From assembly GCF_014697575.1 (NCBI RefSeq), contig NZ_JACJSC010000008.1, positions 29,075 to 93,074 of the forward strand: a stretch of DNA of 64,000 nt, read 5' to 3'. Position numbers and translations under genes: made by a program. Position 1 is the stretch's first letter. Each line of letters starts with the position of its first letter. The notes under the pieces were generated by a model. That model had not been told where the DNA came from, did no database searches, and worked only from the letters and a program-made list of their open reading frames with translations. The stretch comes from Planktothrix sp. FACHB-1365. Its GTDB lineage: Bacteria > Cyanobacteriota > Cyanobacteriia > Cyanobacteriales > Microcoleaceae. Positions 4,516 through 50,127 of the stretch are shown here, piece after piece.

Positions 4516-6261
4516 ATGGGGAAAATAGAAAAAAGGGATTTAACTTTAGTAGAAATACTACGGGATCAGGCCGTTGCTCAACCTCACCAAATAGCATTTA
4601 AGTTTCTTCCAAATGGAGAACAAGAATCAGATCAATTAACCTATCAAGAATTGGATCAAAAAGCCAGAGCAATTGCCTATCAACTGGGTCAGAAAATTAA
4701 TCGGGGCGAAAGAGTATTATTATTATATCCACCCGGTTTAGAATTTATTAGTGCTTTTTTTGGATGTTTATATGCTGATGCGATCGCAGTTCCTGTTAAT
4801 CCCCCTCGACCCAACAGACCAGCAACTCGGCTTTTAACAATCAAATCAGATTCACAAGCAACATTAGCACTAACTACAACATCTTTATTCAGCAAACTCA
4901 AATCACAACTAACTCATTATCCCGAATTAGCAACTTTACCTTTAATGGTTAGTGATGAAATCAGTATTGATCTAGCTTCAAATTGGGAGAAATCAACAAC
5001 AACAATAGATTCTTTAGCTTTTCTCCAATACACATCTGGATCGACAGGAACACCAAAAGGAGTAATGGTAACTCATGGTAATTTACTCCACAATTCGCAG
5101 TATATCAAACAAGCCTTTCAACTGACACAAGACAGTATATCGGTTAGCTGGCTACCCAGTTTTCATGATATGGGTCTAATTGATGGAATTATTCAGCCTT
5201 TGTACACCGGATTTATGGGGGTATTGATGAAACCTGAAAGTTTTATCCAACACCCTTGGCGATGGCTACAGGCAATTACAAACTACAAAGCAACCCACTG
5301 CGGCGGGCCTAATTTTGCCTACGATCTTTGCGTTCAAAAGATTACCAATGAACAACTTGAAACCCTCGACCTCAGTAGCTGGGAAAGTGCTTACAGTGGT
5401 TCTGAACCCGTGCGGAGAGACACTTTAGAGCGTTTTATTGCTAAATTTGCCCCTTGTGGTTTCACGGCTAAGAGTTTTTATCCCTGCTATGGGATGGCTG
5501 AATCTACCTTAATGATTTCAGGGGGACTTGTTCAAGAAGAACCCATTTACTGCACAGTTGCAGCAGAGGCATTAGAGCAAAATGGGGTGACAGAAGCATC
5601 TAAAGACGTTGAAAATGTTAGACATCTCGTTGGATGTGGACGAGCTTGGCTAGATACCCAAATTGTCATCGTTGAACCCGAATCTTTTCAGCAATGTGAT
5701 TCAGGTCAAGTCGGGGAAATCTGGGTATCGGGTGAAAGTGTTGCTCAAGGCTATTGGAACCAACCGGAACTTTCAGAACAAGCTTTTGGAGCTTATCTAA
5801 CAGATCCGCATCAGGGGCCGTTTCTCCGCACTGGGGATCTAGGATTTTTGCGAGAGGGTGAGCTATTCATCACGGGACGGATGAAAGATATGATTATTAT
5901 TAGAGGTCGCAATTATTACCCCCAAGATATTGAAATCACAGTAGAAACTAGCCATCCAGCGTTGCGAGGCAATTGTTGTGCAGCTTTTGCAATAGAAAAA
6001 GACAATACAGAGCAGTTAGTCATAGTAGCTGAAGTCGAACGGACACATTTACGACATCTGAATGTTAAAGAGGTCGTCGCAGAAATCGGCGAAGCCATCA
6101 TGCAGCAACATGAAATCCAGGCTTATGGCACGGTACTGATTAAAACGGGGAGTATTCCTAAAACTTCCAGTGGCAAAATTCAACGGCGTATTTGCAAAGA
6201 AAAGTTTCTATGCGAAACTCTCAATATTGTCGGGGGAAAGATTGGCAAATCGGAGTTATAA
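4516..6261 (+). CDS. Fatty acyl-AMP ligase (FAAL)
   Basis: Adenylation core motifs (LQYTSGSTGTPKGVMVTHGNLL; YGMAESTL; TGDLGF) and the ~581-aa FAAL architecture. N-terminal DLTLVEILRDQA…AFKFL is typical of FAALs rather than acyl-CoA synthetases. Confidence 0.8.
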   Translation: MGKIEKRDLTLVEILRDQAVAQPHQIAFKFLPNGEQESDQLTYQELDQKARAIAYQLGQKINRGERVLLLYPPGLEFISAFFGCLYADAIAVPVNPPRPNRPATRLLTIKSDSQATLALTTTSLFSKLKSQLTHYPELATLPLMVSDEISIDLASNWEKSTTTIDSLAFLQYTSGSTGTPKGVMVTHGNLLHNSQYIKQAFQLTQDSISVSWLPSFHDMGLIDGIIQPLYTGFMGVLMKPESFIQHPWRWLQAITNYKATHCGGPNFAYDLCVQKITNEQLETLDLSSWESAYSGSEPVRRDTLERFIAKFAPCGFTAKSFYPCYGMAESTLMISGGLVQEEPIYCTVAAEALEQNGVTEASKDVENVRHLVGCGRAWLDTQIVIVEPESFQQCDSGQVGEIWVSGESVAQGYWNQPELSEQAFGAYLTDPHQGPFLRTGDLGFLREGELFITGRMKDMIIIRGRNYYPQDIEITVETSHPALRGNCCAAFAIEKDNTEQLVIVAEVERTHLRHLNVKEVVAEIGEAIMQQHEIQAYGTVLIKTGSIPKTSSGKIQRRICKEKFLCETLNIVGGKIGKSEL

Positions 6262-15205: not shown

Positions 15206-15285
15206 GAAAAATGTAATAGTGTTTATACGATGTAGGGGCGGGGTCATCCCCACCCATCATCAGTCAGCAGCTACTCTCTCTTGAC

Positions 15286-39487: not shown

Positions 39488-40567
39488 ATGAAACCAGCAA
39501 ATCAAGACCATTATTCGGGTGATTCTACTTCTGTATTAGAGACAATTTCTGAGACGACTGATCCTTTATTTAAACCAACTCCATCTAAAACTATTCCCCC
39601 CCTAATTAAACTTCTGCGTCCCCACCAATGGACAAAAAATTTATTCTGTTTAGCCGGACTTTTGTTTGGGGGTAGACTATTACAACCCCAGAGCATTTTG
39701 CTATCAGGATTAACGGTAATTTTTTTCTCAGCAATGGCATCAGCCATTTATATTTTTAATGATATTCAAGATCGAGAACGCGATCGCCAGCATCCGAAAA
39801 AAAAGTATCGTCCCCTTGCGAGTGGTCAAGTTTCAGTTAAAATGGGGTTAGCGATCGCAATTCCTTTAGCAATCATTTCCCTATGGGGTGCATATTTTTT
39901 AGGAATTCCCACATTAATTTGCATTTTACTTTACGCTATTAACAATATTGCTTATTCTCTCAAACTCAAAAATATAGCTTTATTTGATGTTAATTGTATT
40001 GCCTTTGGATTTGTATTAAGGCTATTAGCCGGAATTTATGCGTTAGGAGATATGCCGACGGCTTGGATTGTTTTATGTACCTTTTTTCTAACTTTATTTT
40101 TAGGGTTTTCTAAACGGCGTTCTGAACTTTTATCTCTCTTGCATTTTCAAAACCATCAAGACAGTTTAGAGTCTGAAAACCTAACTCAAGACAATGTAAA
40201 ATCAGCACCGTTAGAACGCTCTTATTTACACTTATTTTATCAACGGGGAAGAAAAAACCAACAACGTCCAGTTCTCTCTCAATACACCTTACCTTATTTA
40301 GATTCTCTGCTCAATAGCACAGCAACAATGACCATTATGTGCTATGCTTTATTTACAATAACATCAGGTAAAAATCCTTCTTTAGTGATTACTGTTCCGA
40401 TTGTTTATTATGCCGTAATGCACTATAAATGGTTAGTTACAGTTTTAGCTGAGGGAGAAGAACCCAGCCGTATTTTAATTCAAGATCCTACGATTAAATG
40501 GAGTTTATTAATTTGGTTAATTTCTTATTTAGCAATCCTGTATTTTAAGATTGATTTATTTCATTAA
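39488..40567 (+). CDS. UbiA-family prenyl-phosphate phosphoribosyltransferase (decaprenyl-phosphate 5-phosphoribosyltransferase, Rv3806c-like)
   Basis: LRPHQWTKNLFCLAGLL…NDIQDRERDRQHPKKKYRPLASG closely parallels the mycobacterial DPPR synthase motifs (NDxxDxxxD…HPxKRxRPxAxG). Second Asp-rich motif and 8-9 TM. Confidence 0.7.
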   Translation: MKPANQDHYSGDSTSVLETISETTDPLFKPTPSKTIPPLIKLLRPHQWTKNLFCLAGLLFGGRLLQPQSILLSGLTVIFFSAMASAIYIFNDIQDRERDRQHPKKKYRPLASGQVSVKMGLAIAIPLAIISLWGAYFLGIPTLICILLYAINNIAYSLKLKNIALFDVNCIAFGFVLRLLAGIYALGDMPTAWIVLCTFFLTLFLGFSKRRSELLSLLHFQNHQDSLESENLTQDNVKSAPLERSYLHLFYQRGRKNQQRPVLSQYTLPYLDSLLNSTATMTIMCYALFTITSGKNPSLVITVPIVYYAVMHYKWLVTVLAEGEEPSRILIQDPTIKWSLLIWLISYLAILYFKIDLFH

Positions 40568-40633
40568 TTTGATGACAATCGATCCAAATACTATCTCTGA
40601 ATAATAAAAGTCGATCAGACATTAAAACAAAAT

Positions 40634-41074
40634 TCAAATTCTTAAATAACTGGCTGTAGGACTCAGTGGCAAAAGCACGAGAGTTTGTTTCTGCAAATCT
40701 AATTCAATACCCAAAGCTTCTAAGGGGATAACGCCCAATAACGGATCTGCTCCTGCGGGCAATTCTATGCACTCAAAAGTTGCGTCTCTTCCCATTAATG
40801 AAATTTTTGCATCTTCAAAAATGCGTGCCGTACCGATACCAGTTGTCGTTGCTACAGGTACTGTTTTCAGAAGTTTTAAACCGAGTTGAGCGATCGCATC
40901 CTGCGGCAAGCATAAAGTAGTTGCTCCCGTATCTACCAGCACATCTTTTATTGTAATAGAACGGACTCGATCAGCAGGAATTAGATTATCTTCCGCCTTA
41001 CCTTGGTCTAGCCGATTTGTGATTGTCAACGTTGTGGTAATTTTTCCCATTGGTTCTTTGATAGTTGATGTCAT
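40634..41074 (-). CDS. Retropepsin-like (clan AA) aspartic protease
   Basis: Catalytic VLVDTGATTLCLP motif. ~145 aa from internal Met MTSTIKEP. Confidence 0.55.
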   Translation of the reverse strand: MTSTIKEPMGKITTTLTITNRLDQGKAEDNLIPADRVRSITIKDVLVDTGATTLCLPQDAIAQLGLKLLKTVPVATTTGIGTARIFEDAKISLMGRDATFECIELPAGADPLLGVIPLEALGIELDLQKQTLVLLPLSPTASYLRI

Positions 41075-41176
41075 GATTATATCTCTCGGTAGCATTTTAG
41101 ATTGATTACAACTTTCACGGAAAAGAGCGATCACGCCCGATTGAACATCATTTTACCATATCTATTGTACCTAGCC

Positions 41177-41421
41177 TGTAGGGGCGGGTTCGCCTGAATA
41201 TTTGACAGCCATCAACAAATTATAAAAACCCGCCCCAACCCCACCGAAAAATTAACAATTAATTCAATTTAATGGTTATTCAGTGATAGTGATTTGGGAT
41301 TATTTTTTGGATGGGGGCGGGTTTATTAAGATTATCGGTGGGTGACATAATTTATCGGTGGGGGCGGGTTTATTAAGGTTATCGGTGGGTGACATAATTT
41401 ATCGGCGAACCCGCCCCTACA
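41177..41421. mobile_element. MITE-like non-autonomous element with perfect 18-bp terminal inverted repeats
   Basis: tgtaggggcgggttcgcc at 41177..41194 and its exact reverse complement ggcgaacccgcccctaca at 41404..41421. Interior holds a 49-bp tandem duplication (gggggcgggtttattaag…ttatcggtgggtgacataatttatcgg x2), an inverted copy of the gcggg core, and no ORF. Confidence 0.5.
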
Positions 41422-41449
41422 AATTTTACCCATTACCCATTACCCATTA

Positions 41450-41599
41450 TTACCGTAGACGTTTTTCATCTTCTCTACGTCTGCGATCGCGCCATTCTGC
41501 GAGGGTTAAATAAATCACACCCCCGGTAAAAATTAGCAGCAGCGAGAAAGCAACCAGTACCAAAATATCAACAATTGTCAACTGTTGTAAAACTTCCAT
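41450..41599 (-). CDS. Unannotated 49-aa single-TM protein
   Basis: ORF MEVLQQLTIVDILVLVAFSLLLIFTGGVIYLTLAEWRDRRRREDEKRLR, below the 60-aa cutoff of the ORF track. Hydrophobic helix plus basic tail. No SD checked. Confidence 0.3.
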   Translation of the reverse strand: MEVLQQLTIVDILVLVAFSLLLIFTGGVIYLTLAEWRDRRRREDEKRLR

Positions 41600-41710
41600 A
41601 GGTCAATTCAAAAAGCAGTTTTTATCTATTTTAATTCAAAATGTAGGATAGATGACATCAGTTTATTGATAATCACCCCTCCTACACCCCAGAAACCGAG
41701 TTTTTACTGT

Positions 41711-43414
41711 TTAAACCGCAGGTAACTCATCTAAAATGGTAAACCGAACATGATTAATGGCTAAGGTTCCCACAGAGACTTTTTCTCGGTCAACATCAAC
41801 CCCTTGATTTGTTAATCGTTGAAAGCGGATTCCTTTGCCAATTTCAATATGATACCAAGCTAATCCCATAAAAAACCGCAACGGATAGGGCCCTCCTTCT
41901 TGAATATCATCCGGGTTTGATTCCATGGGAACCCAACCGAAACCCGGAATATAAAATTCCAACCAAACATGATTATATTCAGGTTCTAAAGAAACCCCTC
42001 GACGGTCAGCAAATTGCGGACATTTATACCGTCCAATGGTGCGACAAGCAATGCCATTTAATCGGGCTAAAGCTAATAAAACCCCCACATATTCCCCACA
42101 AGAACCAATCCCTCGCTTCAAAACCACATCAGGATTTTCAATCTTAGAAGTCAGACTATAGGATAACTGATCATAAACATAATTGCGAATACTTAAAAGT
42201 TGCCGTAAAAAATTTGTTTCATGGCGAATCGCAGCTTGTGCTGCTTCTTGAACAATAGCCGTATTCATCGCTAAATGATCATCATCGACTAAATATTTTT
42301 GGGGGAAATCCGGTGACAAACGAGGAATATTTTCCACCTGACGAGGATTAATTTGATATTTAATACTTCTAACTTCCAACACAGCTTTCCAACCAAAAAT
42401 TAAACGTTCTGTTGAAGTTAACGGATTAAATCGGAAAACCGCGACTTTTTCCCCCTCTTCAATTTCTTCCCTAAAGGGAATCCCTATATAAGATACCTGT
42501 AAAACTTTTTGCCGTTTCGTATTAGACGGTAAGGCAATTCGCCATTCCAAATCTTCAATGTAAACCGCATCTAACGGTTCTAACTCTTCTACATAAGACA
42601 TCTCGATCAAATAGCCATTAGATGTGGCATAATGCTCAGATTCATTATAATAGAAAGATAAGGGATGAATAAACGTGCGATCGCGTCTTGCTAATTCAAA
42701 TTGTTCATAGGAACTGGGATTATCTCGAATATAAAGCTCATCCCCAGCATAGGCAACATAAAGAACTTCCTCACCCGTTTCAGGATCAGTATAAAAGGTT
42801 AATCCCGTGGGAGATTCAAAGGGCGTTAATACACTAAATCGCGTTTCTCCCGTTCCCCGTTCTAAACAATAAACCGTTTGTTCTTCTCGATCACAAACCC
42901 ATAATTCCTCATTTTTAATCGTGAGATTTTCCACCCCAATTCCTGGGGAATGGAAGCGGGTAATTTCCTGTCGGGTATTGCGACTATAAACTAAAATAGA
43001 AGCCAGTCGATCACAAGCTAAATAAAGGGTAGATTCCCAAACCGCAATTCCGGTGACAGCATCAGGTAATTCCAAAAACAATTTAGGCTCAAGATTAACA
43101 ATAGAATTCCCTGCAATCACCTGGGGAGCATAATAAACTTCTCGACCGCGAGTAAACCACAACGTATTATCCCAAAAAGCTAAACCTGTAACATCTCTAA
43201 ATGCTAAAGTTAAATCAGGATTAACCACCGTTGCATTATCGGTTTTGGGGTCAATTTTAAGTAAAAATCCCCGTAAGGTATCAACGGCAAATAAGGAATT
43301 TTCTACCCCAATTAACCCATATAAAGCAGAAACCCCCATCGGTCGAATTGTCCGGGGTTTAAAACCCGTATTTTGCCCCAAAGTTGGTGAGTTAAGATTC
43401 ATAGAAATTGTCAT
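41711..43414 (-). CDS. Transglutaminase-like cysteine protease domain protein with N-terminal beta-rich domain
   Basis: Transglutaminase core Cys-His-Asp region (GIGSCGEYVGVLLALARLNGIACR…YNHVWLEFYIPGFGWVPMESNPDD). Confidence 0.7.
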   Translation of the reverse strand: MTISMNLNSPTLGQNTGFKPRTIRPMGVSALYGLIGVENSLFAVDTLRGFLLKIDPKTDNATVVNPDLTLAFRDVTGLAFWDNTLWFTRGREVYYAPQVIAGNSIVNLEPKLFLELPDAVTGIAVWESTLYLACDRLASILVYSRNTRQEITRFHSPGIGVENLTIKNEELWVCDREEQTVYCLERGTGETRFSVLTPFESPTGLTFYTDPETGEEVLYVAYAGDELYIRDNPSSYEQFELARRDRTFIHPLSFYYNESEHYATSNGYLIEMSYVEELEPLDAVYIEDLEWRIALPSNTKRQKVLQVSYIGIPFREEIEEGEKVAVFRFNPLTSTERLIFGWKAVLEVRSIKYQINPRQVENIPRLSPDFPQKYLVDDDHLAMNTAIVQEAAQAAIRHETNFLRQLLSIRNYVYDQLSYSLTSKIENPDVVLKRGIGSCGEYVGVLLALARLNGIACRTIGRYKCPQFADRRGVSLEPEYNHVWLEFYIPGFGWVPMESNPDDIQEGGPYPLRFFMGLAWYHIEIGKGIRFQRLTNQGVDVDREKVSVGTLAINHVRFTILDELPAV

Positions 43415-44715: not shown

Positions 44716-46734
44716 ATGGGTAGGAGTGAAAATCTGATTCATTTTCGTCAGTGTGGAGTGATTTTAACCAGTACCCTATTGCTGGTTTTATCCCTATTTT
44801 CTCGTCAAGGTCTTTCTCAAAATTCTTCAGTGTTAACCTCGGTTTCAGAGGAAACCCCAGATTCTCTAACAACCGATAACCAGATCATATCGGTTAAATC
44901 AACTGCATTCCTTCGCCCTTCAACCCTGACTTTCTCTGAACTCGCTTATGTCCCTCCACTTCCTCCGTTAAAACCCTTAAATTGGGGAGAAGTCTCAACA
45001 CAAAGTGATCATTCTCGTTCCTTTGCTACGACTGGGGAGTTGTGCGATCGCCAAAATTGTCCGACTTTGGCCCAAGGCGGATCAATTAATATTCCGCCCC
45101 AAGTTCCCCAACCCGATCCCAACAAAGATCGATTTTTACCACGACCTCCCATTCCGCCTAAACCGGAACCCCCCAATAACCCAGAGTTACAACCCACTCC
45201 CACTCCTAGCCCAACGCCGAACCCACCCACAGATGAAACCCCCATTCCCGTTCAAAAAATTAACGTTACAGGGAGCACAATTCTCACTTCAGAGGAAATT
45301 CAAACCTTAGTTACCCCCCTAGAAAATCGTTCTGTGACTCTGACGGAACTGCGGGAACTCGCCGATAAAATTACAGCGATTTATTTAGAACGAGGTTACA
45401 TTACCTCTAGGGCTATTGTTCCTGAACAAACCATTAACAATGGCATTGTTGAGATTCAGGTGATTGAAGGAACCTTAGAAAATATTGAAGTTGAAGGAAT
45501 CAAACGCCTCCATCCCTCTTATATCACCAGTCGCATTCGTTTAGGTGCGGAAAAACCCCTCAGTACCGCCGCCTTAGAAGATCAATTGCGACTGTTACGG
45601 ATTAATCCCTTATTTGAAAGCGTAGAAGCCAGTTTAAGGGCGGGAACCCAAGAAGGCCAAAGTATTCTAATTGTTCGAGTTGTGGAAGCACCGCCTTTCG
45701 GGGTGAGTCTGAATATTGATAACTATTCCCCCCCCAGCATTGGTTCTGAGCGTATGGGAATTAGTGTGCGTCATCTTAACCTAACAGGTCGGGGAGACTT
45801 TCTGGGACTATCCTACAATACGACTCGCTTAATTGCGGATGGTGAATCAGATATTATCGACGCTTTGTATAGTATTCCCATCAACCCCATGAACGGAACG
45901 ATACAATTGCGAGTCCAACCTTACCAAAACCGCATTATTCAAGATCCGTTTGATGCGTTGAATATTGAAGGAAAATCTCAACGTTATGAAATTAGTTATC
46001 GTCAGCCGATTATTCGTAACCCTATCACCGAATTTGCGTTATCCTTTGGTTTTGCCTATCAAGATAGTCAAACCCTTTTAGATAATAACGGAGAACCTTT
46101 TGCATCCGGGCCAGATAGTAACGGGTATACGCGCACCAGTGTTTTGAAGTTTGGACAAGATTATGTAATTCGAGATACGGAAGGGGCTTGGGCTTTGCGA
46201 TCGCAATTTAACCTGGGTTTAGATATTCTCGGCGCTACGGATGTGAGTACACCCAATGCTTCCTTTTTGAGTTGGTTAGGTCAAGTCCAACGAGTACAAC
46301 GACTAGGGGAAGATAATCTATTAATTGCTCAAGGAGATATTCAACTATCGGCTGATCCGTTATTTCCTTCCCAACAATTTGTGATTGGAGGAGCTTTATC
46401 TTTAAGAGGATATCGTCAAAATGTCCGGGCTGGGGATAATGGCTTTCGGATTTCCCTCGAAGATCGAATTACCCTGGATCGAAATCAAGACTCTGAACCT
46501 GTGTTTCAACTGGCGCCCTTTATTGATTTTGGTGGGGTTTGGAACAATGACAGAAATCCCAACCGCATTATTGGTAAAACCTTTTTAGCAGGTGCAGGAT
46601 TAGGTGTAATTTGGGAACCCGTTTCAGGGTTAAATCTCCGCCTTGATTATGGTCTTCCCCTCATTGGTATCAATGATCGAGGCAATAATATTCAAGATGA
46701 TGGAATTTATTTTAGTGTTATTTATACCCCTTAA
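44716..46734 (+). CDS. ShlB/FhaC/HecB-family two-partner-secretion outer-membrane transporter (TpsB)
   Basis: Pro-rich linker, POTRA region (INVTGSTILTSEEIQTLVTPLENRSVTLTELRELADKITAIYLERGYITSRAIVPEQ…VIEGTL) and C-terminal beta-barrel ending with aromatic residues. Confidence 0.8.
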   Translation: MGRSENLIHFRQCGVILTSTLLLVLSLFSRQGLSQNSSVLTSVSEETPDSLTTDNQIISVKSTAFLRPSTLTFSELAYVPPLPPLKPLNWGEVSTQSDHSRSFATTGELCDRQNCPTLAQGGSINIPPQVPQPDPNKDRFLPRPPIPPKPEPPNNPELQPTPTPSPTPNPPTDETPIPVQKINVTGSTILTSEEIQTLVTPLENRSVTLTELRELADKITAIYLERGYITSRAIVPEQTINNGIVEIQVIEGTLENIEVEGIKRLHPSYITSRIRLGAEKPLSTAALEDQLRLLRINPLFESVEASLRAGTQEGQSILIVRVVEAPPFGVSLNIDNYSPPSIGSERMGISVRHLNLTGRGDFLGLSYNTTRLIADGESDIIDALYSIPINPMNGTIQLRVQPYQNRIIQDPFDALNIEGKSQRYEISYRQPIIRNPITEFALSFGFAYQDSQTLLDNNGEPFASGPDSNGYTRTSVLKFGQDYVIRDTEGAWALRSQFNLGLDILGATDVSTPNASFLSWLGQVQRVQRLGEDNLLIAQGDIQLSADPLFPSQQFVIGGALSLRGYRQNVRAGDNGFRISLEDRITLDRNQDSEPVFQLAPFIDFGGVWNNDRNPNRIIGKTFLAGAGLGVIWEPVSGLNLRLDYGLPLIGINDRGNNIQDDGIYFSVIYTP

Positions 46735-46786
46735 TCCCCGTAGGGGCGGGGTTTCCCCAGCCTAACTCAGCTATCAGATGATTAAG

Positions 46787-48627: not shown

Positions 48628-50127
48628 ATGGCTTTCTTCAAAGACTTTACCACCGCGCTTAAAGATAAGTGGTTGCAATATTACCAAGCCAATCGAGAGT
48701 GGCTGGTACTGCAAATGGATTTGAATTCAATACCGACCCCCGATGGGGGTCGAAGACCCGCCTCCTCCCTCATTTTGGGAACGATCAACGCGCTTGACCC
48801 AGAGGCAGCCCAACTCATGTTGCCCTTTTCTAAACTCAATCCAGATCCTGAAAAACTGATTGATGTTTTAGGGCTGAATTTTGATCCCGATATAGCGTTG
48901 GACATTAGGCCTACCCCAGGAGAATCTCCAACGGTAGTTGTTCCAACGCCAACTCCGGTTCCTCCGGCCCCTCCAGAGACACTGAATTTAGAGGAGGAAG
49001 TGACTCTGGTAGAACAACCCAATATAGCGGGTGCTGCCGTGGCCGTTGCCAGTGCTGCCGCTGTTGTTGGAGGGGCTGCGGTGATTGCCGATACCCTGGA
49101 TGACTCCGATGAACTCGAGCTTGATACCGAAGAAGAAATCACCATCGATGAGATGGGCCTGGATGATTCCGGCATGGATGATGATTTCGGAATGGATGAT
49201 CTGGATGCAGAGGCAATGGAGGACACTGATGTCGATGGGGATCTGGATTTAGATATCGACACAGAGACGGCTAGCGTAGCCGAGGAAGACTTTGATCTAG
49301 GGTTGGAGGATGAATCAGAAGCCGTCGGTGCTGATGACCTAGACATGGGCTTAGATTCCGATGAGATGGGTGCTGATGACCTGGACATGGGTTTAGACTC
49401 CGATGAGATGGGTGCTGATGACCTAGACATGGGCTTAGATTCCGATGAGATGGGTGCTGATGACCTAGACATGGGTTTAGATTCCGATGAGATGGGTGCT
49501 GATGACCTAGACATGGGTTTAGATTCCGATGAGATGGGTGCTGATGACCTGGACATGGGTTTAGACTCCGATGAGATGACATCCGATGATTTCGATTTGA
49601 GCTTAGATTCGCAAACGGAATCGGCTGAATTAGACATTGATACCGAATCTGATGTCTGGGACGACAACGTTAATACGGAACTGGGTGAAGACACGGAGAC
49701 AAGCGATGATATCGATTTTGGTTTGGAATCCTCCGATGATCTGGGTTCAGATGGAATGGACGATCTCAGCTTAGAGTCGGAAGTTTTAGCCGCAGATGAC
49801 TTGGATGGAGAAATCAGCCTAGAAGCTGACGACCTTGGTTCTGATGATTTAGGAGGGTTGGAATTAGAAGATACAGATTCAAGTCTGGATGATGATTTGG
49901 GTGATTTAGGATTGGAAGATAACTCTTCCGATGGCCTGGATCTCGATACCGGAGATAATTTAGACGATTTAGGATTAGGGGATGATGATTTTTCATCCGA
50001 TGATTTAGGGGATTTTAATCTCGACGATATGGGTGATTTAACAACTGGAGATATGGACGATATTGATATCGACGGATTAACCGGTTCTTCAGATGATGAC
50101 GAAATTTCCCTGTCGGATTTTAAATAA
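48628..50127 (+). CDS. Highly acidic repeat protein encoded between chlL and chlN
   Basis: ~90-aa conserved N-terminal domain (MAFFKDFTTALKDKWLQYYQANREWLVLQMDLNS…). The rest is Asp/Glu-rich, including six tandem 14-aa repeats DDLDMGLDSDEMGA. Confidence 0.6.
   Translation: MAFFKDFTTALKDKWLQYYQANREWLVLQMDLNSIPTPDGGRRPASSLILGTINALDPEAAQLMLPFSKLNPDPEKLIDVLGLNFDPDIALDIRPTPGESPTVVVPTPTPVPPAPPETLNLEEEVTLVEQPNIAGAAVAVASAAAVVGGAAVIADTLDDSDELELDTEEEITIDEMGLDDSGMDDDFGMDDLDAEAMEDTDVDGDLDLDIDTETASVAEEDFDLGLEDESEAVGADDLDMGLDSDEMGADDLDMGLDSDEMGADDLDMGLDSDEMGADDLDMGLDSDEMGADDLDMGLDSDEMGADDLDMGLDSDEMTSDDFDLSLDSQTESAELDIDTESDVWDDNVNTELGEDTETSDDIDFGLESSDDLGSDGMDDLSLESEVLAADDLDGEISLEADDLGSDDLGGLELEDTDSSLDDDLGDLGLEDNSSDGLDLDTGDNLDDLGLGDDDFSSDDLGDFNLDDMGDLTTGDMDDIDIDGLTGSSDDDEISLSDFK
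49329..49580 (+). repeat. Six tandem 42-bp in-frame repeats (gctgatgacctagacatgggcttagattccgatgagatgggt)
   Basis: Read directly. Units at 49329, 49371, 49413, 49455, 49497 and 49539 differ by a few synonymous/wobble changes. Confidence 0.85.

Follow-up and report, generated by a model that had tools for sequence, protein, structure and literature searches.

The 64,000-nt stretch of Planktothrix sp. FACHB-1365 DNA analyzed here (contig NZ_JACJSC010000008.1, positions 29,075 to 93,074; hereafter the window, with coordinates counted from its first nucleotide) has a G+C content of 39.7% and carries 31 HIP1 sites (GCGATCGC), which mark it as cyanobacterial. At 41177-41421 lies a 245-bp palindromic element, flanked on one side by a minus-strand open reading frame (ORF) encoding a retropepsin-like protein (40634-41074; Pfam gag-asp_proteas, 28.0 bits, just below the cutoff of 28.2) and on the other by a minus-strand ORF of 49 aa (41450-41599). 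Both neighbours had been correctly recognized in an earlier inspection made without database searches, referred to below as the sequence-only reading. A heptamer array, (TTACCCA)3.4, at 41426-41449 abuts the right-hand head of the element; it lies outside the repeat and is hypervariable among orthologous loci. The element itself is non-coding, its only ORFs being of 31-51 aa and encoded by the repeat itself. [quoted passage not shown] Its anatomy, its relatives and the transposase gene that some of those relatives bracket point instead to a doublet of repetitive extragenic palindromes (REPs).

A repeat search located the 18-nt sequence TGTAGGGGCGGGTTCGCC at 41177-41194, matched perfectly by its reverse complement at 41404-41421 with a spacing of 209 nt, bearing out the perfect 18-bp inverted termini described earlier. 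With up to three mismatches allowed, this 18-mer has 3 matches in the window against 0.03 expected, a number reached in 0 of 100 shuffles. The core GGGGCGGG occurs 8 times in the window (1.0 expected), with 5 copies inside the element, as the sequence-only reading had noticed for its gggcggg core; the remaining three start at 15235, 46743 and 61133, the last being an 8-mer within an ORF and compatible with chance. The inverted symmetry extends far beyond 18 nt. The two ends are imperfect inverted copies of ~75 nt (inverted repeat I1, 71% over 38 nt), and each end forms a hairpin of the type GT[AG]GGGGCGGGTT-36/37 nt-AACCCGCCCC[AT]AC (I7 and I8). Each 18-bp TIR is the GTAG-footed head of a ~62-nt stem-loop module, composed of (T)GTAGGGGCGGGTTCGCC, a loop of ~36 nt and AAACCCGCCCC, with a G+C-rich stem of 9-10 bp.

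The complete element consists of two ~62-nt modules with their heads outward, a centre of ~70 nt, and a tandem duplication of the tail and loop of the right-hand module; without this duplication it measures 196-198 bp. Module A (41178-41239, plus strand) has its head GTAGGGGCGGGTTCGCC at 41178-41194, stem strands GGGGCGGGTT at 41181-41190 and AACCCGCCCC at 41227-41236 enclosing a 36-nt loop, and a 3' foot AAC. Module B (41358-41420, minus strand) reads GTAGGGGCGGGTTCGCC, loop and AAACCCGCCCCCAC on the minus strand and has the double foot GTAG...CCAC, against GTAG...CAAC in module A. The centre (41240-41311) begins with CCCACCGAAAAATTAACAATTAATTCAATTTAATGG and is common to other doublets of the family, with the motif AAATTAACAATTAATT[CG]AATTTAA[CT]GG recurring at seven loci (L023, L036, L072, L076, L078, L093 and L101). 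The duplication (41312-41405) had been given as 49 bp, a figure that Tandem Repeats Finder corrects to a period of 47 nt (2.0 copies, 97% matches). As single-stranded DNA, the whole element folds at -51.6 kcal/mol (z = -6.05) with its termini paired, module A at -12.5 kcal/mol (z = -3.3) and module B at -10.4 kcal/mol (z = -1.75). This fold and the inverted repeat I2 show the arrangement of a REPIN, that is, a REP doublet forming a hairpin, and the foot characteristic of GTAG-type REPs, a GT[AG]G tetranucleotide placed 0-2 nt 5' of the hairpin, stands here directly 5' of the stem strand GGGGCGGGTT in either arm as well as in two solo motifs elsewhere in the window.

To describe the family, species-representative genomes were scanned with the 17-mer head GTAGGGGCGGGTTCGCC; the resulting counts are lower bounds, and fractions given below refer to the matches listed. 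Exact matches numbered at least 142, spread over at least 120 stretches. Cyanobacteria supplied 108 of the 120 listed stretches, from ~46 genomes that are nearly all Oscillatoriales (genera include Microcoleus, Tychonema, Kamptonema, Planktothrix, Oscillatoria, Lyngbya and Symploca), and the other 12 came from G+C-rich non-cyanobacteria. The tail AACCCGCCC lay at +48 to +50 in 115 of 116 evaluable cyanobacterial heads (exactly at +49 in 70) and at the same spacing in just 1 of the 12 non-cyanobacterial matches, which are attributable to chance. Because the tail formed no part of the search pattern, its presence in 115 of 116 cases identifies the ~62-nt module as the real repeated unit. Loop sequence varies widely between subfamilies while loop length is fixed within 1 nt, and the base preceding GTAG is T in 85 of 116 heads. 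A candidate inner helix of 4 bp, joining positions 24-27 to 39-42, can pair in 64-76% of 74 modules, with little covariation. In 805 kb of family loci there are 190 occurrences of the string GTAGGGGCGGG, as compared with four heads in the 64-kb window, and a single metagenome-assembled genome, Prado104, holds up to ~17 exact heads among those listed.

A convergent partner was present for 48 of 116 heads (~40%), giving a modal doublet length of 192-196 bp. When freed of its duplication, the window element (196 bp) aligns end to end, at 76-87% identity, with 22 doublets of 190-196 bp; at least 12 genomes are represented among them. The flanks of these doublets are unrelated to one another. The earlier view of the element as a non-coding member of a dispersed small-repeat family is supported by the exact heads and homologous doublets. 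Target-site duplications (TSDs), a check that the sequence-only reading had proposed, were not detected: direct repeats of 2 nt or more are absent from the ends of 21 of the 22 related doublets and from those of the window copy, whose flanks read ...TAGCCT on the left and AAATTTT on the right. Instead, the palindrome runs on weakly for ~6 nt beyond the doublet ends, as AA[AT][CT]CT before the GTAG and [AG][AG]ATTT after the CTAC. A lack of TSDs had been named in advance as the mark of a mere local palindrome; that test is inapplicable here because neither RAYT (REP-associated tyrosine transposase) nor IS200-type elements generate TSDs. In PLSDB plasmids, blastn with the 245 bp gave no match, and a scan of viral contigs gave 4 matches, none with the +49 tail, and so no link to phage. 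A full-text literature search for the core strings retrieved no cyanobacterial paper.

Several family loci contain tandem arrays of three to four REP modules or doublets (L011 5513-5900, L128 3575-4200, L092 4139-4550 and L021 5451-6816); the periods are 96, 172-192, 138 and ~305 nt. Duplications such as the one of 47 nt in the window and one of 117 nt at locus L023 look like a first step of array formation. Modules also occupy the centre of unrelated palindromic carriers. One such carrier has arms GAGATCTTGCACCATTCTCAA... (L069 1459-1590, L076, L111, L088, L103 and L092 4139-4550) and a centre that varies by copy: some hold a GTAGGGGCGGG module, some two GAACAGGC...GCCTGTTC hairpins and some AGAAACCCGGTTTCT hairpins. 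A whole carrier is present at one and absent from the other of loci L014 and L017, and likewise of L040 and L020. Repeats nested within repeats are reportedly a feature of Elhai's small dispersed repeats.

Relatives of the window element bracket a transposase gene. A 186-aa ORF at L108 942-1499 (minus strand) was first picked up as the sole match to Y1 transposase probe sequences, and was then verified independently: the protein matches NCBIfam NF047646 (REP_Tyr_transpos) at 83.7 bits (cutoff 80) and Pfam Y1_Tnp at 33.5 bits, and reaches only 20.6 bits against the IS200 model (cutoff 55). Two window-family doublets lie 3' of its stop codon, the nearer at 12 nt, and one and a half doublets lie on its 5' side, with a head 45 nt from the ATG. 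Five further RAYT loci encoding four different RAYT proteins were compared (L125/L126, L127, L128, L129 and L130). A head stands 40-50 nt upstream of the ATG at all five Oscillatoriales loci (L108, L125/L126, L127, L128 and L129), in the last four as CCCGCCCCTAC, and a head follows 5-14 nt past the stop at four of these five, L125/L126 being the exception; at L127, L128 and L129 it is GTAGGGGCGGG. At the Rivularia locus L130, whose RAYT is 59% identical, GTAAGGGCGGGTTAACC modules occur on both sides within ~250 nt. Head placement at every RAYT locus cannot be chance, because heads occur in the window at a density of only about one per 16 kb. Doublets adjoining RAYT genes are 77-81% identical to the window element. 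These relatives of the window locus thus display the arrangement that defines a REPtron, a RAYT gene flanked by its own REPs.

Searching for homologs brought up thousands of Y1_Tnp proteins, including orthologs 70-96% identical in Oscillatoriales, Planktothrix and Limnoraphis, several of which bear the JGI name RayT. Genome CG2_30_40_61, whose locus L025 is syntenic with the window, encodes a RAYT of this clade (P0011). In an alignment of 19 homologs, residues N80, H81, H83, W124, Q125, Y145, N149 and P150 are invariant and I146 nearly so, yielding the RAYT motifs NHxH, WQ and YIxNNP (NHFH, WQ and YIINNP in the 186-aa protein of the L108 type). A phmmer search of the Protein Data Bank (PDB) with a single RAYT sequence found nothing at E <= 0.01; a family profile had as its best PDB match E. 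coli TnpA_REP (4ER8, E = 5.8e-6), with ISDra2 TnpA (2XM3, E = 0.006) ranking behind it. Subclass 2.4 of TnpA_REP is described by Quentin et al. (2018, PMC6006769) as having the motifs NH[IFV]H, WQ and YIxNNP and a length of ~190 aa, as being abundant in Cyanobacteria, and as equal to Group 4 of Bertels et al. (2017, PMC5581495). REPs of subclass 2.4 are long hairpins with three G-C pairs at the bottom of the stem, or have a 'double foot', 5' GT[AG]G and 3' C[TC]AC (PMC6006769). The present proteins carry the same motifs and, at 186 aa, come close to the median of ~194 aa, and by these sequence characters the clade is that of TnpA_REP subclass 2.4, or Group 4. In the homologs P0055, P0117 and P0119, which include proteins of the deltaproteobacteria Geothermobacter and Desulfuromonadaceae, a translated REP (GGGGCGGG...AAACCCGCCCC) is inserted in the RAYT gene at alignment columns ~100-145, a peculiarity on record for subclass 2.4.

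The two solo motifs that the sequence-only reading had seen near 15233 and 46741 are real and occupy 15232-15255 and 46740-46762, both on the plus strand. As proposed, they are related to the element, with which they have the GTAG foot and the GGGCGGG stem in common. The first reads GTAG GGGCGGGG TCAT CCCCACCC (equivalent to GTAGGGGCGGGG-TCAT-CCCCACCC), lies in a ~80-nt gap between two minus-strand ORFs and folds at -8.7 kcal/mol (z = -3.4). The second reads GTAG GGGCGGGG TTT CCCCAGCC (GTAGGGGCGGGG-TTT-CCCCAGCC), begins 6 nt past the stop of a TpsB-like ORF (44716-46734) and folds weakly (-6.2 kcal/mol, z = -1.5). Both are extragenic and each lies just 3' of a gene. Classical REPs measure 20-40 nt. 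The solos have 23-24 nt, and the long modules, at ~62 nt, fall at the upper end of the 21-65 nt given as the REP size range in PMC6006769.

Nearly all GTAGGGGCGGG heads at Oscillatoriales loci belong to the long type. The short pattern GTAGGGGCGGGG-N3-4-CCCCA[CG]CC was found in at least 120 metagenome stretches of 33-73% G+C, where it usually reads ...CCCCACCC(CTAC) and the same C/A mismatch is conserved halfway up the stem; a metagenome scan with a subfamily-specific 20-mer gave 0 matches. Probably, therefore, the short REP is not confined to one lineage and spans several phyla. A RAYT-like gene is present at 7 of the 120 listed metagenome loci and lies no more than 200 nt from the REP at 3. 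Because 7 of 120 is far above the expectation for a single-copy gene, the short REP too can be linked to RAYTs. At metagenome locus L194, two heads lie inside the RAYT-like gene. By their common foot and stem, the solos are kin to the doublet arms; they are double-foot REPs of the short kind, within the same broad type linked to RAYTs, and could be either collapsed modules or the ancestral form.

In Oscillatoriales USR001 (L072), a retropepsin-like gene and a doublet form a segment 89-90% identical to the window (window 40629-41358, L072 135-864); that doublet measures 194-197 bp, depending on the ends chosen, and is without the 47-nt duplication. Homology between the two loci ends 5 nt beyond the stop codon of the retropepsin-like gene, and the USR001 homolog of a nearby transglutaminase-like protein (P0167) reaches no more than 65% identity. 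It may be that the segment comprising the retropepsin-like gene and doublet has a separate history; alternatively, P0167 could be a paralog. That the retropepsin-like gene is linked to the repeats was considered and rejected, the two being found together only in the window and in its USR001 counterpart. Planktothrix PCC 11201 (L078) and loci L023 and L025 have ~80% nucleotide identity to the window on the transglutaminase side and carry family members beside the 49-aa ORF. The left half of the L023 doublet is tandemly duplicated (the 117 nt mentioned above), and L025 (~4830-4990) has a lone left module next to more than 25 TTACCCA repeats, as against 3.4 in the window. In L078 (1452-3755), the centre of the doublet is split by ~2.3 kb comprising an IS701-like DDE_5 transposase gene (444 aa) and two small overlapping ORFs, neither of which has a Pfam match; here a REP has served as target of an insertion sequence (IS). 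Because the window copy is shared at the same junction with the small transmembrane (49-aa) ORF by relatives only ~80% identical, and with the retropepsin-like gene in USR001, it is an old copy that was remodelled locally.

The closest relative found (loci L131 and L132, also L134; 96-97% nucleotide identity) matches the window from 46604 down to 41429 and carries different genes beyond, the break in L131 (position 5037) falling 8 nt outside the element. The doublet coincides, then, with a synteny breakpoint between 96%-identical strains and is not a clean recent insertion. Beyond the 49-aa ORF, L131 has another small palindrome (CACGGATTTAA...TTAAATCCGTG) and HTH_VMAP-M9 and HemolysinCabind genes absent from the window. 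Two further features lie farther along the window. A 192-nt in-frame part of the TpsB-like ORF (44822-45013) is missing in L131 and present in Planktothrix L078, and a 42-nt tandem repeat at 49327-49610 (6 copies, 95% matches), presumably coding, is nested in a 126-nt period. Exact-protein lookups of the window's 567-aa protein and of P0091 returned no record.

Collectively, these data make it highly probable that the 245-bp element is a REPIN-like doublet of two inverted, long double-foot REPs with heads outward and one arm partly duplicated, and that it belongs to the cognate repeat of a subclass 2.4/Group 4 RAYT clade. It is very likely that the family represents a mobile, non-autonomous element. 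By analogy with the biochemistry of E. coli TnpA_REP, IS200/IS605 TnpA, IS608 and ISDra2, as summarized in PMC6006769, a Y1 HUH enzyme would bind the hairpin extruded on single-stranded DNA, with the GTAG foot as guide and cleavage determinant. Single strands would be cut and rejoined, and REPs or doublets could spread in this way without TSDs. Should the element influence the genes on either side of it, this would be a side effect. The sequences themselves show the anatomy of the repeats, their dispersal, the absence of TSDs and the bracketing of the RAYT gene; from the parallels we infer RAYT-catalyzed mobilization, the nature of the moving unit and such activity as the family may have at present.

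Several observations weigh against this interpretation. The 64-kb window itself contains no RAYT gene by tblastn. Stem covariation was absent from 74 unique modules, both by alifold and by pair counts, the 9-bp stem being invariant and partly selected by the search. A clean pair of filled and empty doublet sites was not found, L131 showing a breakpoint instead of an empty site, and both cases of presence and absence concern modules embedded in other carriers rather than doublets, so that the mobile unit may be the module, the doublet or a carrier together with its module. Moreover, Group 4 is common in cyanobacteria but is tied to only modestly abundant 16-mers, and it does not figure among the groups to which Bertels et al. 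(PMC5581495) ascribe large REPIN populations.

Among the alternatives, the one that fares best is a selected structured element, such as a terminator, an mRNA-stabilizing hairpin, a protein-binding site or a small RNA, that did not spread by transposition. The strong fold (z = -6), the position of the solos just 3' of genes and a loop conserved in length and free in sequence would all suit such a function, and E. coli REPs are known to stabilize mRNA and to bind gyrase and integration host factor (via PMC6006769). However, copies are found in either orientation and in contexts unrelated to one another, form tandem arrays, nest within other repeats, show no covariation, and are tightly linked to a transposase gene. 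An Rfam scan of 40000-42500 produced only sub-threshold microRNA and CRISPR noise. As to the promoter or terminator activity that had been suggested as possible, promoter and terminator scans placed no site inside the element, and the single terminator match in the region falls outside. A selected function as the origin of the family is thus unlikely; a secondary, exapted role is compatible with the data.

Still less probable is a classical MITE, that is, an IS deletion derivative moved in trans by a DDE transposase that recognizes the 18-bp TIRs and makes TSDs. Perfect 18-nt TIRs in a small, non-coding, multi-copy sequence invite this explanation, and Nezha and similar MITEs are known in cyanobacteria (PMC3184786). 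What the sequence-only reading called MITE-like holds insofar as the element is a non-autonomous dispersed repeat, but not as regards mechanism. TSDs are wanting at the window copy and at 21 of 22 relatives, and no IS with these ends, the autonomous partner that it had been proposed to look for, was found in the 805 kb around 190 heads, a sample that does not prove its absence genome-wide. When ORFs of at least 100 aa were clustered (1537 ORFs in 120 loci), no transposase recurred beside the heads, only generic multi-copy families, and the sole DDE gene seen (that of L078) has been inserted into the element and has its own ends. Furthermore, 68 of 116 heads are single modules rather than TIR pairs, and the GTAG foot and the bracketing of a RAYT gene indicate a Y1 enzyme. 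About equally improbable is a derivative of an ordinary IS200/IS605 element resembling a palindrome-associated transposable element, whose left-end and right-end hairpins would be mobilized by a multi-copy TnpA(Y1), perhaps together with TnpB: fold and chemistry of the protein are the same, and the family profile also matches ISDra2 TnpA (2XM3), but the associated protein scores above the RAYT equivalog cutoff and far under the IS200 cutoff (20.6 versus 55 bits), its tyrosine motif is YIxNNP, as in RAYTs, and not Y...Q (table in PMC6006769), no tnpB adjoins the RAYT gene, and the repeats are inverted on either side of the gene, which is the REPtron arrangement, and are far more numerous than it. 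Resemblances of the loop to TnsB sites of CRISPR-associated transposons (CAST) or Tn7, to a tRNA T-arm or to a G-quadruplex were dropped as unsupported.

A broader proposal builds on the REPIN-like doublet and is offered tentatively, as we would at present put it below even chances. At most small repeat families have so far been ascribed to Group 4 RAYTs. In Oscillatoriales, these RAYTs may instead keep full REPIN populations of ~10^2 copies per genome in a three-level hierarchy, consisting of the short double-foot REP, the ~62-nt module (loop 36 +/- 1 nt, free in sequence), and ~195-bp doublets together with modules placed exactly at the apices of several unrelated carriers. Should this architecture be real, the Y1 enzyme would insert REPs by preference into the single-stranded tips of extruded hairpins and some protein would measure the loop. 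The family itself offers a system where short REPs, long REPs and doublets occur side by side, and with it the well-documented REPIN-like doublets with a bracketed RAYT are extended from gammaproteobacteria to bloom- and mat-forming cyanobacteria. In practical terms, such palindromes in genomes of the Planktothrix, Microcoleus and Tychonema type should be annotated as REP or REPIN, not MITE, and TSD-based tests are inappropriate for them. Copies also mark local instability in the form of tandem duplications, IS insertion and synteny breaks, which matters for the assembly and comparison of repeat-rich genomes. The class itself was already described between 2013 and 2018 and will not surprise the specialist.

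Among known systems, Nezha and other cyanobacterial MITEs (Zhou et al. 2008; PMC3184786) resemble the element in being non-coding and multi-copy in filamentous cyanobacteria, with inverted termini and stable folds, at a size of 130-170 bp. Nezha, however, has direct-repeat TSDs and TIRs shared with an IS, ISNpu3 (PMC3184786), whereas the present element shows neither a TSD nor, in the loci compared, an IS partner, and is tied to a RAYT. A nearer likeness is to the GTAG-12, GTAG-15 and GTAG-16 families of Di Nocera et al. (2013, PMC3733652), which are GTAG-tagged cyanobacterial palindromes and often dimers. GTAG-15 has large loops and occurs inside longer palindromes without empty copies, and the nesting of modules in carriers observed here is of the same kind. 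The hosts in that study were Anabaena, Nostoc and Cyanothece, in contrast to the Oscillatoriales here; the string GTAGGGG is absent from its supplementary text, and the comparison with the three families is by description only.

The associated protein and its repeats agree most closely in class with subclass 2.4/Group 4 (PMC6006769, PMC5581495), the proteins being of 186-194 aa, with NH[IFV]H, WQ and YIxNNP and abundant in cyanobacteria, and the REPs having three G-C pairs at the bottom of the stem and GT[AG]G...C[TC]AC feet. Those two papers, in the text consulted, supply the class and do not contain the present Oscillatoriales sequence family or the ~195-bp doublets that it forms. In organization, the closest parallels are the REPs, bacterial interspersed mosaic elements and TnpA_REP (4ER8) of E. 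coli and the REPINs of Pseudomonas (Bertels & Rainey 2011, PMC3116915). As in those systems, hairpins that appear to be multi-copy and extragenic have a GTAG foot on their 5' side, inverted doublets are frequent and fold into one long hairpin, TSDs are lacking, a Y1/HUH gene is bracketed by inverted repeats as a REPtron, and copies reside for long periods at orthologous sites. The system described here differs in that its host is a cyanobacterium of the Oscillatoriales and not a gammaproteobacterium, and in that its RAYT belongs to another group than that of E. coli, 4ER8 being reached by profile and not by single-sequence search. Unlike its counterparts in E. coli and Pseudomonas, its REP is ~62 nt long with a ~36-nt loop, giving a doublet of ~195 bp rather than ~100 bp, whose arms A and B differ in the loop.

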